DNA from: a virus
Lineage: Duplodnaviria; Heunggongvirae; Uroviricota; Caudoviricetes
Direction: 5' to 3' (one strand)
DNA length: 64,000 nucleotides
Virus record (IMG/VR): IMGVR_UViG_3300037312_000757
Below are positions 44,344 to 58,692 of this stretch, one piece after another. A program made the translations under genes and the position numbers. Position 1 is the stretch's first letter. Each line of letters starts with the position of its first letter. Under the pieces are notes generated by a model, which had not been told where the DNA came from, made no database searches, and worked only from the letters and a program-made list of their open reading frames with translations.

Positions 44344-47300
44344 ATGCCTACAATGTCAAGCGGCAACATCACACCGGGTACGGGAAAGATCACATTCCCG
44401 GACAACAATACACCAACTTCAATCTCGGATTCATCCACTAGCGAATCAGGAACAGATGCATCTGGAAATGCATCCGGAGGGAATGGTTCCGGCTCATTTA
44501 TCAAAAGCGTAACTGGCCACAACATTTCTATCAACAACAGTAGTGCGGTTGGGATTTTGCAGGGTGTGACGACTGGTGAAGATATCAACTTTGCATTCAA
44601 GGCAATTATACCAGGTGATGGTATTCAACTTGCCTCTGATGGCCAGTCAATCACAATTACAGCGACTCACACCGACGATACGTTGGCGCGTGTTGCTTAC
44701 ACTGGTTCATATCAAGATCTGATCGATCTACCAAATCTTGCGAAAGTCGCAACGTCAGGCAACTATCTCGATCTGATTAACCAACCACAATTGTCAACCG
44801 TTGCATTCACTGGTCGGTATACAGATTTGTTGAATCTCCCAACAATTCTGCCACAAGTGAATTCAGACTGGCTCGCGACAACAGGCACAGCCCAAATCCT
44901 CAATAAGCCGATCTTGGCTGCGGTTGCCACATCAGGTGCATACAATGATTTGACTGGCCGCCCAAACCTGGCCACCGTTGCAACCACTGGCTCCTATAAC
45001 GATCTTAGCGATACGCCGCCAATTATTCCACAAGTAAACTCAGACTGGAATGCAACAACAGGTATTGCGAAAATCCTTAACAAACCAAACCTGGCTACGG
45101 TTGCAACCACTGGTTCTTATGCCGATCTAACAAACACACCAGCTCCATACGAACTGCCTATCGCATCAACCACTCAACTGGGTGGCGTGATGCTGAGCAA
45201 TCAATTTGCGGTCGATGAGACTGGCGTCATCACGATTGCTGCTGGTTTTGGTAGTGTGAAGTCTGTTGCGATGGCAATGCCATCAATCTTCTCAGTACAA
45301 GGTTCACCAGTCACATCAACTGGTACTTTGACCGCAGTTCTATTGGGTCAGCCAGCTAATACGGTTTTTGCTGGGCCAGCTTCTGGTTCGGCAGATATTC
45401 CAGCATTCCGCCAGTTGACTGGTGCAGATTTGCCTGCCGCAACAAAGACGAGTTTGGGTACTGTTTACGTTCCTGCAAGTTCTGGTTTGACTATTGGTAC
45501 AGATGGTGCAATTGGCTTCAATGTTAACTCATTGGTAAGCTCAACGACTGGTTACTTCGTTGTTGATTCGCCAGTCTTTAATGGTACTCCAACGGCCGTC
45601 AATACGCCAGCGACAAGCGATAATTCAAATGCATTGGCAACAACTGCATTTGTTAAGAGTGCTCTGACTGCATTCAACCTTCCACCAGCAACAGCAACAT
45701 CTATTGGTGGGGTTATTGTTGCCAACCCAGATTTTTCTGGTTTGACCGTTGATGCAAGTGGTAACTTGGCCGCGAACGTTATTTCGTTCATGGATCGAAC
45801 TGGCAAAGTCAGGGTGCAAGGCTCTGATCTAGTCAACCCAGGTAATGGTCTTTTCATTGTTGATTCGCCAGTGTTTAATGGCACTCCATCAGCAGTCAAC
45901 ACACCAATTATCACTGACAATTCTGGTAATCTGGCGACTACCGCCTTTGTCCACAATCTGGTTAATGCTTCAGGCGTTGCTACATTCAACGGACGTACGG
46001 GCCAAGTAACGTTGGGATGGGGTGATCTTACCCCTCTTGGTGTTGCTCCACTGGACAGCCCAGTGTTCACTGGTAATGCATCAGCAGTAACACAAGCGAA
46101 TGCTGATAGTTCAACATTGTTGGCAACAACTGCATTCGTGCATAACCTAGTTAATGCTTCTGGTGTTGCTACATTCAATGGCCGTAATGGCGTTGTCACG
46201 CTACAAGCTTCAGACTTGGTTGATGGTACTGGGCGATTCCTGCTTCAATCGCCAAACATTGTTGGTACCGCTACTGTAGCAACACCCACAACCGGTGATA
46301 ATTCTAATGCGATTGCAAACACCGCATTCGTTCAGAACACATTGAACAGTGTGGCCGTTACCAGTGTGGCTGGTAAGACCGGCGCAGTGACGTTGGATTA
46401 CACCAACATTAGCGGTGCTGCTCCTATCAACAGCCCAGTGTTTACTGGTTTGCCATCAACTGACGGTGTGACGCCATTCCTTCTTGATCAAATCGATCAT
46501 ACTCTAGCAACAACACAATGGGTCTATGAGGCTTTGTCAAGTGCTCAAACAGTTGATGTTCATACTTGGAACCCAATTCCAGCAAAGTATTACAACTCAC
46601 CAATCTTGAATTTGGTTGGTAACCTTGTAGTAGATACTACGGTGACTTTGCCATCTTCAGGTCGATGGGTAATCGTAAACAACGCGGGGCCAAGCAATCT
46701 GACATTGAGCTGTGGTACTGGTCCAACATTGCAGATGGTTCCAGGTGCGTTCTATGACATCGTTGCTGATGGTGGTATCTACATTGCTGGCCAGATGGGT
46801 GTAACTCGTCCATTCAATGACAATACCACATATTTGGCGACAACTGAATTTGTGCAAACTGCACTGGGTAATCTGCAGACCGGCGTTACATCATTCAATA
46901 CACGTACTGGTATCATCGTTCTGCAACCAAGCGACCTGCAGAAAACGGACGGTAGTGGTGACTTCCTATTGGATTCAGCGTCATTCAAGGGTGTTCCAAC
47001 AGCACCAACAGCCACATTTGGTACGAACACAACGCAAATCGCCACCACACAGTTTGTGACAACTAACTTCGCTCCACTTGCTAGTCCAGCACTGACAGGT
47101 GTGCCAACAGCACCTACACCAGCCCGTGGTGATGATTCTACTACGTTGGCGACTACTCACTTCCTGCAACGCTACATGAGCAGTATTGTGACCGTTGACG
47201 TCTCCGATGTATCTCATGGAACAACGTTCACATTGACACCAGCGCAGTACGGTACTGAGATCATACAGTTTATTGGTGTGATGACTGCTTCAGTCATCAT

Positions 47301-48924
47301 CAACATGCCAGCTTCTGGCCAGTGGATCATGTACAACAACACTAACGGTGATTTCACCGTTACGTTGTCAAACGGCGGCGGAGCCACATATGTAGTACCG
47401 CAGAACGAATCCGCTTCCGTGTTGTCACAAACTGGCCTTGGTATTATCAATAGCAACGTTGCTGGTGCGGTGTTTACGCCTGCTACTGTGTCTACACTCG
47501 GTGGCGTTATTGTTCCAAACGGTGGCGGAATCACAGTCGATGCAAATGGTAATATCGGTGTGGCTGCTGGTAGCGCTTCTAATCTTGGTGGTGTAAAGCA
47601 AGGTGCTGGCGTAACTATTGCTGCTGATGGTTCATTGAGTGCAAATGTCACAACCGTTGCTGGCCGAACAGGTGACGTGGTCTTGGCTGTCGCTGATGTG
47701 ACAGGTGCTGCCCCTCTTGCCTCACCCGCGCTAACCGGTACACCAACAGCACCTACGCAAGCTGCAAACGACAATTCGACAAACATTGCCACAACCGCGT
47801 TTGTGAAATCTGCTATCAGCGGCGCGTCAGTCACATCATTCAATACTCGTACTGGTGCCATCACTCTACAAGCATCTGACATCACAAGTGCTGGTGGTGC
47901 ATTGACTGCCTCACCAACATTTACCGGTGCAGTGACGTTGCCCGTTCCACCAACCTATACTGCAAGTGACTTGCATGCGGCAACCACATCATTCGCATAC
48001 CAGGCAGGTCAGGGTGTTACCCAAGTTTCAATCGCAGGATTGGTTGGTACACAGTCGTTCGCTTTGACACCAGAGCAATATCGTTTCCCTGTTATTGAAA
48101 TTACTGGGGCTCCAAACGATACAAACGTGGTTGTTACTTTCCCGGCAAGCGGTCATTGGTGGGTATATAGCACAGTCGATACCCGTACTCTTGGTTATTA
48201 CGTTACAGTCAAGGGCCAAACTAGCACATCATACGCATTGACCGCTGGTCAATGGTATGAATTTGTTGCTGACGGTGCGGCAAATACAGGTCTGCTCTTG
48301 GTTAACCAATCTGGTGGTAACGGCATCAACGCTGTCACATCATTCAACGCACGCCAAGGTGCTGTCACATTGACAGCATCAGATGTGAACACCGCATTGA
48401 CTTACACTGCGGCAAATGCTGCGACAACTGCACCGCTCGCTTCACCTGCATTTACTGGTACGCCAACTGCACCTACAGCAACAGCGGGAACGAACACTAC
48501 ACAAGTAGCAACCACAGCGTTTGTTCAAGCTGCGTTGCCAAATACAAGCATATTTGCACCAAAGGCTTCTCCAACATTCACAGGTGTTGCGACTATCCCT
48601 GCGGCAGTTTACGGTGTGACGAGCTTGGGTAATGTGTCAGGTACTGTGACCATGGATTTGACTACATCGTCCCAGTGGACGATGACTATTACTGGTGCAA
48701 CCACATTTGCGTTCAGCAATCCACCAGCATCAGGCTCATGGGAAGTTGCATATCTGCGTTTGACTAATGCTGGTTCGGCTACGATTACGTGGCCAACATC
48801 TACGAAGTTCTCTGCTGGCACTGCACCAACATTGACTGCGGCGGGTGTTGACTTGCTTGGTGTATTCTATGATACCGTAACTTCAACCTACATGATCTTT
48901 GTGATTGGCTTGAACATCCAGTAA
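44344..48924 (+). CDS. Long tail fibre / receptor-binding structural protein
   Basis: 1526 aa, T/G/A/S-rich; repeats LA.VAT(S/T)G.Y.DL, SP.(F/L)TG.PTAPT...ATTAFV, V.SFN.RTG.V.L. Confidence 0.88.
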   Translation: MPTMSSGNITPGTGKITFPDNNTPTSISDSSTSESGTDASGNASGGNGSGSFIKSVTGHNISINNSSAVGILQGVTTGEDINFAFKAIIPGDGIQLASDGQSITITATHTDDTLARVAYTGSYQDLIDLPNLAKVATSGNYLDLINQPQLSTVAFTGRYTDLLNLPTILPQVNSDWLATTGTAQILNKPILAAVATSGAYNDLTGRPNLATVATTGSYNDLSDTPPIIPQVNSDWNATTGIAKILNKPNLATVATTGSYADLTNTPAPYELPIASTTQLGGVMLSNQFAVDETGVITIAAGFGSVKSVAMAMPSIFSVQGSPVTSTGTLTAVLLGQPANTVFAGPASGSADIPAFRQLTGADLPAATKTSLGTVYVPASSGLTIGTDGAIGFNVNSLVSSTTGYFVVDSPVFNGTPTAVNTPATSDNSNALATTAFVKSALTAFNLPPATATSIGGVIVANPDFSGLTVDASGNLAANVISFMDRTGKVRVQGSDLVNPGNGLFIVDSPVFNGTPSAVNTPIITDNSGNLATTAFVHNLVNASGVATFNGRTGQVTLGWGDLTPLGVAPLDSPVFTGNASAVTQANADSSTLLATTAFVHNLVNASGVATFNGRNGVVTLQASDLVDGTGRFLLQSPNIVGTATVATPTTGDNSNAIANTAFVQNTLNSVAVTSVAGKTGAVTLDYTNISGAAPINSPVFTGLPSTDGVTPFLLDQIDHTLATTQWVYEALSSAQTVDVHTWNPIPAKYYNSPILNLVGNLVVDTTVTLPSSGRWVIVNNAGPSNLTLSCGTGPTLQMVPGAFYDIVADGGIYIAGQMGVTRPFNDNTTYLATTEFVQTALGNLQTGVTSFNTRTGIIVLQPSDLQKTDGSGDFLLDSASFKGVPTAPTATFGTNTTQIATTQFVTTNFAPLASPALTGVPTAPTPARGDDSTTLATTHFLQRYMSSIVTVDVSDVSHGTTFTLTPAQYGTEIIQFIGVMTASVIINMPASGQWIMYNNTNGDFTVTLSNGGGATYVVPQNESASVLSQTGLGIINSNVAGAVFTPATVSTLGGVIVPNGGGITVDANGNIGVAAGSASNLGGVKQGAGVTIAADGSLSANVTTVAGRTGDVVLAVADVTGAAPLASPALTGTPTAPTQAANDNSTNIATTAFVKSAISGASVTSFNTRTGAITLQASDITSAGGALTASPTFTGAVTLPVPPTYTASDLHAATTSFAYQAGQGVTQVSIAGLVGTQSFALTPEQYRFPVIEITGAPNDTNVVVTFPASGHWWVYSTVDTRTLGYYVTVKGQTSTSYALTAGQWYEFVADGAANTGLLLVNQSGGNGINAVTSFNARQGAVTLTASDVNTALTYTAANAATTAPLASPAFTGTPTAPTATAGTNTTQVATTAFVQAALPNTSIFAPKASPTFTGVATIPAAVYGVTSLGNVSGTVTMDLTTSSQWTMTITGATTFAFSNPPASGSWEVAYLRLTNAGSATITWPTSTKFSAGTAPTLTAAGVDLLGVFYDTVTSTYMIFVIGLNIQ

Positions 48925-50094: not shown

Positions 50095-50168
50095 AACATG
50101 ATGGGGAGCAAAGCTCCCCATCATTTTGGGCTTGATTTGCAACCAAGTGAATGTAGACCCGCAAACGA

Positions 50169-50843
50169 TTACCACAACAAGTTGAAATTACCCGCCATCA
50201 CTTTATCGACGGATGCCGACTTGCCACTATTGTGATCCTTCACAATATCATCTTGAAAACGATACGTGCGGATCTTGTCACCACGCATACCAGAACCCGT
50301 TTGCGCTTTGCGTTCGGCTGACTGCGCTGCATTGTGCTCCGCAGTAGCTTTACCGTTCAAACGATCGATGATTGCGACCTTTGCTTCATCAAGTGAGTTC
50401 TCACGACTACGGCATTGCGCGGTAGCAACGGTGCCTGTTGGAATGTGTGTGATGCGACACGAGTTCTGATGCTTATTGCGGTGTTGGCCCCCTGCACCAG
50501 TACCAGAGTACCACTCAATGCGGAAGTCACGCTCGTTCCAGGAGACGCTTGGTGCGTCTTGTGGGTCAATTACGGCTACAGTAACGGTCGAAGTGTGAAC
50601 ACGTCCGCGCCGTTCGGTTGGTGGAACGCGCTGGATTCTATGTCCGCCTGCTTCGTTTATGAGTTGGGAAAGATCGGTGCCTTCTACGGTAATGCTGACA
50701 CCAGAGTCGCCGTTATCGGCGTATTGAGTGAGTCAGCCGACTCGTGTGAAGTGCTTGATGTATGCGTTTGCCAGGTCTTTAGCAAACAGCTTTGAATCTT
50801 GGCCGCCTTCGGCCCCTTTGATTTCGATGATGCGTTTCATCAT
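50169..50843 (-). CDS. RF1-type class I peptide chain release factor (domain 1-less) with in-frame TGA at codon 37
   Basis: Manual translation: MMKRIIEIKGAEGGQDSKLFAKDLANAYIKHFTRVG*LTQY...EAGGHRIQRVPPTERRGRVHTSTVTVAV...GTGAGGQHRNKHQNSCRITHIPTG...RGDKIRTYRF; AAGGAG RBS; TGA at 50733-50735. Confidence 0.9.
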
Positions 50844-50892
50844 GTTCTCCTTTAAGTGAGGACCTACATTCTATTGCCATCTTAACTGGTAG

Positions 50893-51929: not shown

Positions 51930-52142
51930 TTAGTTCTCCACATCAAATTCCAAAAGTTCTTCGATCAACAGCTGGTAATGACACTTGACAGCATGTAATT
52001 GATCGAGCAACTTCTGCGTGATTTTTCCTGTCTTGCGACAAACGTCCAAAGCCTTTTGTAATTCGGCATCTAGCGCTTCGGACCGCAGATGGAACCATGT
52101 TTCAGTTCCATCTGCATGATAGCCTACAACAGAAACGACCAT
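51930..52142 (-). CDS. Hypothetical protein
   Basis: Coupled ORF. Confidence 0.5.
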   Translation of the reverse strand: MVVSVVGYHADGTETWFHLRSEALDAELQKALDVCRKTGKITQKLLDQLHAVKCHYQLLIEELLEFDVEN

Positions 52143-52612
52143 CAGCCGATCAGTTTCCCCAGCACGTCGCTTGCCAGCTTGCCGTCATACTGGCCGTTGT
52201 AGTTGGCCTTCAGAATGGCCATTGCTTTGCCGCGTTCCTTGGCCGTAATGCCATCCGGGAATTCGGCGCGGAAGATCTGTTCCAGTTGATCTGCCGTCAG
52301 TTGTTGTGGCAGATAGCCGTTCAGGATCTCGGCTTCCTTGCGTGCATCCGCGAGTGCCTGTTCGTCCTTGACATTCGCCTGCACTTCGGCGTTGCCCTTC
52401 AGGAACTTGCGCACAGTTGCGATGATTTCATCGCTCGTCGGATCGCGCTTGATCACGCGGCCGTCAGCATCACGTTGTTCCTTTTCGGCGGCAGCATCAG
52501 CGAGCGTTTTTGCTTCGCCGATCAGTGTCGTCAGCAGCGAAGCGACGATAGTGTTTTTGTCCTTGCGGGCCTGCAATTGGTCCGCTTTAATCTGTTCTAG
52601 CGTTACCGCCAT
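52142..52612 (-). CDS. GatB/YqeY domain protein
   Basis: LEQIKADQLQARK...EAEILNGYLPQQL...GKAM...GQYDGK. Confidence 0.85.
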   Translation of the reverse strand: MAVTLEQIKADQLQARKDKNTIVASLLTTLIGEAKTLADAAAEKEQRDADGRVIKRDPTSDEIIATVRKFLKGNAEVQANVKDEQALADARKEAEILNGYLPQQLTADQLEQIFRAEFPDGITAKERGKAMAILKANYNGQYDGKLASDVLGKLIG

Positions 52613-52691
52613 CACGTTCTCCTTTTTCTTCACTAATGGTCTTAGATGATACATTCATATAGGACCATCAGCAATGTTTATTGCTTATTGT

Positions 52692-55032: not shown

Positions 55033-55433
55033 CAGTAGAGCCTCAAGTGTGACGTGATGCCTTCAAACTCTTCGTTGAAAGCAGGACCGATCGCAAGGCA
55101 GGTTACGGTTGGTTGACCGTTAAACACAGTCTTACCACTGTCGGTGATGCGACATACTGGCAAACCCGCTGCAATCGCTTTTGCTTCGATCGCCTCGAGC
55201 TCAGCCAAGTCCTTGCAACCCAGAACAGGCTTGGTGAAAATACCTTCCCACCATTCGGCCAACGCAGTGTCGTTTTCCACGACAAGCGTGTATTCACGCT
55301 GTTCTTCGGTAGCCGTTACCAGCATTTGAGACTTGATTGCGCCCATTGCGGCGTGGGCAACTTGCGCAGCCAATTTACCTGGCGGCATGTTGAGGTCGCG
55401 ACGTGCGACGATTACTTGTTTTGTTGGCATCAC
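55032..55433 (-). CDS. Peptidyl-tRNA hydrolase, Pth2 family
   Basis: KQVIVARRDLNMPPGKLAAQVAHA, DSGKT, TCLAIGP. Confidence 0.93.
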   Translation of the reverse strand: MMPTKQVIVARRDLNMPPGKLAAQVAHAAMGAIKSQMLVTATEEQREYTLVVENDTALAEWWEGIFTKPVLGCKDLAELEAIEAKAIAAGLPVCRITDSGKTVFNGQPTVTCLAIGPAFNEEFEGITSHLRLY

Positions 55434-58607: not shown

Positions 58608-58692
58608 TGGTGCCCCGGGACGGACTCGAACCGTCAAGCCTTTCGGCGGCAGATTTTGAGTCTGCTGTGTTTTCCAGTTTCACCACCGGGGC
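58608..58692 (-). tRNA. tRNA-Leu(CAA)
   Basis: GCCCCGG acceptor stem, anticodon arm GCAGA-CTCAAAA-TCTGC, long variable arm, GGTTCGAGTCC, encoded CCA; 85 nt. Confidence 0.97.

Follow-up and report, generated by a model that had tools for sequence, protein, structure and literature searches.

A release factor gene with a stop codon inside its own coding sequence raises the question of whether the gene is damaged or whether the stop governs its expression. A gene of this kind was located on the minus strand (50843..50169) of the window, that is, the whole 64,000-nucleotide stretch of viral DNA analysed here. It consisted of a single 225-codon frame, and the only internal stop was the TGA at codon 37 (TGA37, or UGA37 in the mRNA). 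The window belongs to one virus contig of 523,836 bp, denoted G000, which has direct terminal repeats and 47% GC. The contig carried 59 genes for tRNAs along with a tmRNA of the permuted type, and these features, together with its size, indicated a huge phage. Only one gene with an RF-1 domain was present in G000. The gene encodes an RF1-type factor without domain 1, whose production is probably gated by programmed readthrough of UGA37 with insertion of tryptophan, so that RF2 and a tRNA would compete for the same codon.

Release factor gene and predicted product

The features of the locus and the neighbouring genes of the same strand are given in Table 1. The first-pass annotation of this DNA had described the 225-codon frame, the AAGGAG ribosome-binding site, TGA37, the PPT and GGQ motifs and a 63-aa ORF, and all of these were verified at their positions. 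The ORF list of the locus held just one entry, namely this 63-aa ORF with a TTG start (50169..50360) at the 3' end of the gene. The absence of an in-frame ATG between TGA37 and the GGQ motif had also been claimed correctly; moreover, neither GTG nor TTG was found in that interval of the window gene. The GC-rich hairpin beyond the terminal stop is, as judged from its sequence, a likely candidate for a bidirectional terminator, and the Rfam matches at this hairpin were all sub-threshold.

Table 1. Positions of the release factor gene, its sequence elements and neighbouring genes in the window
Feature	Position	Strand	Remarks
Short RF1-type class I release factor gene	50169..50843	-	224 aa if UGA37 is decoded; terminator TAA
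Shine-Dalgarno AAGGAG	50847..50852	-	From sequence; precedes the ATG ATG start at 50843-50838
In-frame UGA, codon 37	50733..50735	-	Context GGC TGA C; conserved Trp of the RF1 'GW' segment
PPT (PxT recognition motif, RF1 type), inside HRIQRVPPTERRGRVHTS	50616..50624	-	Sequence and conservation
GGQ catalytic motif	50484..50492	-	Translation and alignment
Terminal stop TAA of the release factor gene	50171-50169	-	From sequence
GC-rich hairpin GATGGGGAGC-TTT-GCTCCCCATC	50100..50122	.	From sequence; separates the release factor gene from a convergent 224-aa ORF
YqeY-like gene	52142-52654	-	Upstream of the release factor gene, same strand
RNA ligase PF09414	52692-53837	-	Upstream of the release factor gene, same strand
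Second Pth2 paralog, ungated	55035-55421	-	Upstream of the release factor gene, same strand

The class of the read-through product was evaluated with profile models and structures. Pfam returned PCRF with 76.2 bits and RF-1 with 66.3 bits. The NCBIfam prfA model (TIGR00019 / NF001859) gave 187.8 bits over model positions 107-332 of 347, a score that lies below the equivalog cut-off of 400, and the NCBIfam prfB score was 108.9 bits, also under its cut-off. The prfA match began at model position 107, indicating that domain 1 is missing and that the product is an RF1-type factor with domains 2-4. The best matches in the PDB search were RF1 chains with 132 bits, and the top RF2 reached 77 bits. 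Residue 37 was aligned with the Trp of 'GW' in the solved RF1 chains 1zbt and 2fvo, which bears out the earlier assignment of the UGA to the Trp of the RF1 GW segment.

An AlphaFold (AF2) model of the product was built from a 39-sequence alignment and had a pLDDT of 88.9. In the Foldseek comparison, the TM values of the model against RF1 on the 70S ribosome were 0.87-0.88 with an rmsd of 2.7-3.0 Å, whereas the TM against the closed free forms was only ~0.53. The model is confident, and its predicted domains 2-4 are folded like those of ribosome-bound RF1. P74, P75 and T76 were at least 90% conserved, the Q and H-T residues that flank the motif in RF1 were kept, and G118, G119 and Q120 were invariant in the 39 aligned sequences. 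The PxT motif in the sequence predicts specificity for UAA and UAG, not for UGA.

Conservation of the in-frame stop and gating among short phage release factors

A scan of viral contigs gave 253 relatives, and the best 80 of the 253, with full-length identities of 61-73%, were analysed together with the window gene as a family of 81 genes. TGA occupied the homologous codon in 81/81 genes and was the sole in-frame stop in 80/80 relatives. Two further Trp columns of the alignment were invariant and were written as TGG in every one of the 81 genes, whereas the gate column was TGA throughout. Mixing of the two codons in the gate column would be expected if TGA and TGG were interchangeable, and no mixing occurred. 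Synonymous differences among the 81 genes were near saturation (pS 0.73-0.76), and pN/pS was 0.28 upstream of the gate and 0.31 downstream. The gene lengths fell within 220-226 aa, a Shine-Dalgarno sequence with an ATG start was found in 79/81 genes, and the terminal stop was TAA in 77/81, TAG in 2 and TGA in 2. No ATG lay between the gate stop and the GGQ motif in 75/81 genes. The codon preceding the gate stop was GGN, and the base 3' of the gate was A in 51 genes, G in 22, C in 8 and T in none; in six related genomes, T comes next at about 32% of the TGA codons that truly terminate genes.

The retention of TGA in 81/81 genes and the purifying selection on both sides exclude a sequencing error and a private pseudogene. 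At the sequence level, TGA37 is hence to be regarded as a programmed expression gate and not as damage. Programming had been expected to show itself in a TGA kept among relatives under purifying selection on both sides, and this was the pattern found (80/80 relatives, pN/pS ~0.3). The first-pass annotation had also anticipated alternation of TGA with TGG at this codon; none occurred, and the presence of TGA in all 81 genes is stronger than the pattern it had called for. A blastn search of the release factor locus against the phage collection gave no matches.

Remoter short release factors of huge phages also lacked domain 1 and were gated, by other means. One variant contained a single in-frame TGA in an 'SI*L' site, and another contained two in-frame TGAs. 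A further clade (L191 and L197-L205) carried a frameshift cassette of the prfB type, composed of AGGGG, one base and CTT TGA. Read in the +1 frame, the genes of this clade encode a complete factor, PPT and GGQ included, and the CTT was aligned with UGA37. The cassette stop was TAG in L202 and L203 (about 1590-1610; AGGGG-T-CTT-TAG). In L292 (2125-2142), GGGGG-CAC-CTT-TGA-C was found at a different codon, on a contig from the bin of a Hydrogenophilales MAG. Apart from this short frameshift-type gene, the bacterial genomes scanned yielded ordinary prfA genes of full length (34-43% identity) and no clue to the host.

A tree built in quick mode, with 28 short phage release factors sampled, placed the short phage factors in a single clade (support 100), distinct from the full-length RF2 of phages. 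Its subclades were the family of the window gene (96), the frameshift clade (97) and the clade with readthrough at the other site (94). Among the sampled short factors, 27/28 were gated, and the differing means of gating indicate that selection acts on gating as such. By analogy, the RF2-sensing cassette of the prfB type in a sister clade supports a role of UGA37 as a sensor of termination efficiency. The earlier proposal that a codon of RF2 gates an RF1-type factor likewise gains support from the CUU-UGA +1 cassette at the same position. The logic of sensing varies, however, since two members of the frameshift clade use UAG. The UGA of other clades lies at non-Trp positions.

The window gene resembles bacterial prfB in that a class I release factor gene contains an early in-frame UGA and its yield would be tied to termination there; the cassette itself is shared with prfB by the frameshift clade and L292. 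Unlike in prfB, the frame of the window gene is continuous, as for readthrough, and has neither an element like the Shine-Dalgarno sequence nor a CUU. The gate is located in domain 2, whereas the prfB site is in domain 1. Moreover, the product of the window gene is of the RF1 type (PxT), for which UGA is not its own codon, and the control would be cross-regulation instead of self-regulation. A survey of >12,000 bacterial genomes reported no programmed frameshift in prfA, and TAG occurred in none of 8,164 bacterial prfB cassettes (PMC12421855).

Two hairpins at the gate, GAGTC/GACTC and CGCCG-ATAA-CGGCG, had been pointed out in the window gene. Both exist, with a local MFE of -27.3 kcal/mol and a z of about -2.4, but they were not conserved across the family. 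The consensus structure of the family was empty, and the z-scores downstream of the UGA were no different from those of the control segment, on which grounds a conserved stimulatory RNA for readthrough was rejected. No Rfam cis-element was detected within the release factor gene.

Readers of the gate and the proposed mechanism

The tRNA genes of G000 and its relatives were explored for potential readers of the UGA. A tRNA(UCA) of 77 nt with a G73 discriminator and a short variable loop was located at G000:190515-190591 (+). It was scored by Rfam as a canonical tRNA and labelled 'SeC' by ARAGORN. In a comparison of 302 tRNAs taken from six genomes, tRNA-Trp(CCA) genes were its nearest neighbour as well as its best matches in the core and the anticodon arm; with 78% similarity and these core matches as the basis, the best match for its identity is a Trp-like tRNA. 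A BLAST search against E. coli genomes returned weak tRNA-Arg matches only. Neither a tRNA-Trp(CCA) nor a TrpRS was found in G000. The first-pass annotation had looked to a tRNA-Trp(TCA) elsewhere in the genome as a possible reader, and the Trp-like tRNA(UCA) is such a gene.

Eleven genomes with the release factor family were compared. tRNA(UCA) was present in 2 (G000 and G009) and tRNA(CUA) in 8 (G001-G005 and G010-G012); a pattern search of the remaining genome revealed no suppressor. G009 (locus L278:994-1206) held two copies of tRNA(UCA), which had A73 and were not Trp-like. The gate of the release factor gene was UGA in all 11 genomes, irrespective of the anticodon of the suppressor. The suppressor tRNA was a few kb from the tmRNA gene in, for example, G000, G003, G004, G005 and G009, whereas G001 and G002 had it ~11-36 kb away. 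None of the suppressor-carrying genomes of the family looks recoded. Two further observations concern the tRNA genes. ARAGORN called a tRNA with a four-base anticodon (caca) at G001:215231-215318, in the complete relative nearest to G000; it may be frameshift-suppressor-like or a mis-called intron. A tRNA-Leu(CAA) stands isolated in the window (58608-58692, minus strand), and the main tRNA array is at G000:388-403 kb.

Since 9/11 genomes were without tRNA(UCA), a phage suppressor cannot account for the reading of the gate across the family. The earlier suggestion that a suppressor tRNA is supplied is thus consistent with G000, where tRNA(UCA) is present, but does not extend to the family. For most lineages, a near-cognate tRNA-Trp(CCA) of host or phage origin is the one plausible reader. 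A near-cognate tRNA-Trp inserts Trp, which would explain the placement of the gate on a Trp codon.

In the mechanism we favour, termination at UGA37 by host RF2 would leave a 36-residue fragment only, and decoding of UGA37 would introduce Trp, as in RF1 proteins at the same position, and give the full factor. The output of the factor would be the result of a contest between RF2 and the Trp-inserting tRNA. In most relatives, the gate would be read by near-cognate tRNA-Trp(CCA) and would report low RF2 activity, a form of cross-regulation analogous to the prfB switch. Such reading would mean a low yield, and most lineages have no cognate phage suppressor. In G000, the phage's own Trp-like tRNA(UCA) would be cognate for the gate, and the factor would be switched on when this tRNA is expressed. 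We infer the readthrough, the inserted residue, the sensing of RF2 and the biological role of the factor from the comparisons described here.

In phage Q-beta, the coat protein is extended to A1 by low-level decoding of UGA as Trp by the ordinary tRNA-Trp, and a purine after the stop favours it. The window gene is similar in that a phage product would depend on low-level insertion of Trp at a UGA. In Q-beta, the protein that is extended is already complete and the UGA is its normal terminator, whereas the stop of the window gene lies inside a domain at codon 37, and the truncated product would be useless. The class I release factor gene of Mimivirus and Megavirus requires both a readthrough and a frameshift for its expression (Jeudy et al. 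2012, PMC3521657), and it is comparable to the window gene as a viral termination factor whose own mRNA is recoded at internal stops. It is the nearest viral analogue, although it is an eRF1-type factor of a eukaryotic virus with two events in one gene, whereas the window factor is of the bacterial RF1 type, has no domain 1 and would depend on one UGA readthrough at a Trp position.

Control by recoding is known for the release factor genes of bacteria (prfB) and of giant viruses (eRF1). A survey of huge phages lists RF1 and RF2 among phage genes and leaves gating unmentioned (PMC7162821). No description of a UGA-gated RF1-type phage factor was found in the literature searched, nor one of a phage superfamily of release factors without domain 1 that uses readthrough, double readthrough or prfB-like frameshift at UGA or UAG. 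The gating suggests that huge phages monitor or rebalance the termination capacity of the host. The genes also offer natural and compact switches for synthetic biology, based on UGA readthrough and on amber frameshift. Furthermore, an apparently complete RF1 without domain 1 represents a natural test of the need for domain 1.

The UGA may instead be a pure attenuator, that is, a programmed stop which senses nothing and limits a potentially harmful factor to a few per cent of the initiation events. The diversity of the gates (UGA readthrough, double UGA, and +1 frameshift with UGA or UAG), all of them early, would suit generic throttling, and so would the missing conserved stimulatory structure. 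The overexpression of a release factor lowers the fitness of B. subtilis (PMC12421855), which is in line with a potentially harmful product. However, a weak Shine-Dalgarno sequence or promoter would suffice for such a purpose, yet the Shine-Dalgarno sequence is strong (AAGGAG) and the stop invariant. The true prfB sensor cassette in a sister clade points to sensing, and the cognate tRNA in G000 would largely abolish attenuation. Attenuation alone is therefore considered unlikely.

A smaller probability is assigned to self-regulation, in which the short factor would read UGA as well, with broadened or omnipotent specificity, and would exert a prfB-like negative feedback on its own production. 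The exact prfB cassette in a sister clade is suggestive of such feedback, and the use of UGA or UAG among close relatives would be simplest if both codons were read. In RF1, a Glu contacts U1, and the invariant D16 of the short factors was aligned with this residue by eye, which also speaks for a changed specificity. Nevertheless, the RF1 decoding site is conserved in its P-x-T motif, in the Gln that precedes it and in the His-Thr that follows, and the product is nearer to RF1 than to RF2 in both sequence and fold. Self-regulation is improbable in view of this decoding site, and cross-regulation through RF2 remains the preferred reading of the gate.

Genetic code, the Pth2 gate and the gene neighbourhood

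The genetic code of G000 was evaluated through its ORF ends and through a census of in-frame stops. TGA terminated 37-39% of the G000 ORFs, and in-frame extension beyond TGA was no commoner than beyond TAA. For the census, five complete relatives (G001-G005) were compared for in-frame stops spanned by homologous alignments. A stop had to lie in the best-scoring coding frame, because antisense and shifted-frame HSPs otherwise swamp the counts. The census reached stops at least 15 codons from either end of the gene in genes with relatives in the five compared genomes. In G000 and G001, the release factor gene was the sole case of an in-frame stop that is conserved and lies in a genuine coding frame; the census found no TGA/Trp site in other coding frames of G000 and no in-frame TAG in G001. 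A scan for a Shine-Dalgarno sequence with ATG, a few codons, a stop and a long ORF recovered two Pth2 gates and revealed no excess for any stop. The usage of stop codons did not clearly track the type of suppressor among the genomes. G000 is not recoded, and TGA is an ordinary stop outside the release factor gene; the first-pass annotation had likewise held that recoding is not genome-wide, and the ORF ends and extensions agree with it.

A code with UGA as Trp (code 4), genome-wide or in a block of late genes, would make the release factor gene one recoded gene. The tRNA(UCA) and the RF1-type factor recall the 'code change module' of the TGA-recoded Jade phages, which consists of a suppressor tRNA-UCA, TrpRS and RF1 and is itself written in the standard code, with adjoining lysis genes that contain in-frame TGA (preprint 10.1101/2021.08.26.457843). 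The Jade phages and G000 are alike in the combination of an opal-reading tRNA with an RF1-type factor. They differ in that the release factor gene of G000 itself holds the UGA, the remaining genome is unrecoded and TrpRS is missing. The ORF ends and extensions, the census, the lack of a TrpRS and the relatives with the same gate but without tRNA(UCA) all stand against code 4, and this reading of G000 is very improbable and largely refuted. A pseudogene, a sequencing or assembly error, a selenocysteine codon or two products through reinitiation, readings invited by the lone internal stop, by the assembly of the genome from a metagenome and by the 'SeC' label, are refuted at the level of sequence by the conservation of the TGA under purifying selection, by the 77-nt canonical tRNA with its short variable loop, by the lack of a conserved downstream structure of the SECIS kind, by the Trp of RF1s at this position and by the missing start codon ahead of GGQ.

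A second stop-gated gene was found outside the window. The Pth2 gene of G000 (peptidyl-tRNA hydrolase; 186162-186602, plus strand) sits between the tmRNA and tRNA(UCA), and it begins with a Shine-Dalgarno sequence and ATG, six codons and a TGA, followed in frame by the Pth2 domain. Together with G000, the orthologs at G001:49752-50177, L226, L227 and the distant L228 had an in-frame stop at codon 3-8. The gate was TGA beside tRNA(UCA) in G000 and L226, and TAG beside tRNA(CUA) in G001, L227 and L228. The gate codon thus corresponded to the anticodon of the local suppressor in 5/5 loci, which represent about three lineages, suggesting that the suppressors probably work. From this correspondence, the tRNA(UCA) of G000 is likely an active opal suppressor, and, if so, UGA37 of the release factor gene would be read too. 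The codon after the Pth2 gate was GTG in the TGA cases and a non-start codon in the TAG cases; reinitiation at GTG is a possible alternative for the TGA loci, as judged by sequence. In G009-G013, Pth2 was represented by just one ungated paralog, in G009.

The YqeY-like gene, the RNA ligase and the second Pth2 paralog (Table 1) are a loose cluster of translation and RNA-repair genes, and the arrangement is not conserved in relatives. The distance from the PF09414 ligase to the release factor gene was 3 kb in G000 and 10-12 kb in G002 and G003, within a range of 10-170 kb in relatives; it exceeded 100 kb in G001 and G004, and the ligase was absent from G005. These distances bear on PrfH, the release-factor homologue of the RtcB2-PrfH system for ribosome repair and rescue, which resembles the window factor in its lack of domain 1. 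The likeness to PrfH that had been proposed did not amount to membership, since the PrfH model (TIGR03072) gave 46.6 bits against a cut-off of 166.65 and covered the GGQ domain alone. The possible part in ribosome rescue, suggested together with this likeness, likewise gained no support. Unlike PrfH, the window factor keeps the RF1 decoding motifs and has no conserved ligase partner (PF09414). A fixed ligase pairing as in PrfH was also rejected, given the variable spacing or the absence of the ligase in relatives.

The release factor gene adjoined the tmRNA gene in G004 (261189-263545) and G005 (160426-161598), with tRNA(CUA) 3-6 kb off, and this proximity hints at a module for termination and rescue. 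A wider idea can be put forward tentatively, namely that the short release factor, the suppressor tRNA by the tmRNA and the stop-gated Pth2 may form one circuit which reprogrammes termination in infection. In G000, the suppressor would have changed from CUA to UCA (Trp-type) and the Pth2 gate from TAG to TGA, the RF1-type factor would be on as UGA is read as Trp, and the phage would be an intermediate towards a UGA=Trp code of the Jade type. The idea is doubtful; if it were true, a path to UGA=Trp would have been caught prior to the recoding of structural genes. In G000, a release factor is linked with an opal suppressor encoded by the phage, and early stop-codon reassignment is thereby open to experiment. 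Elsewhere in the window, a 1526-aa ORF (44344-48924, plus strand) without a Pfam match is convergent with the release factor region, and G001 and G004 contain only short segments similar to it.
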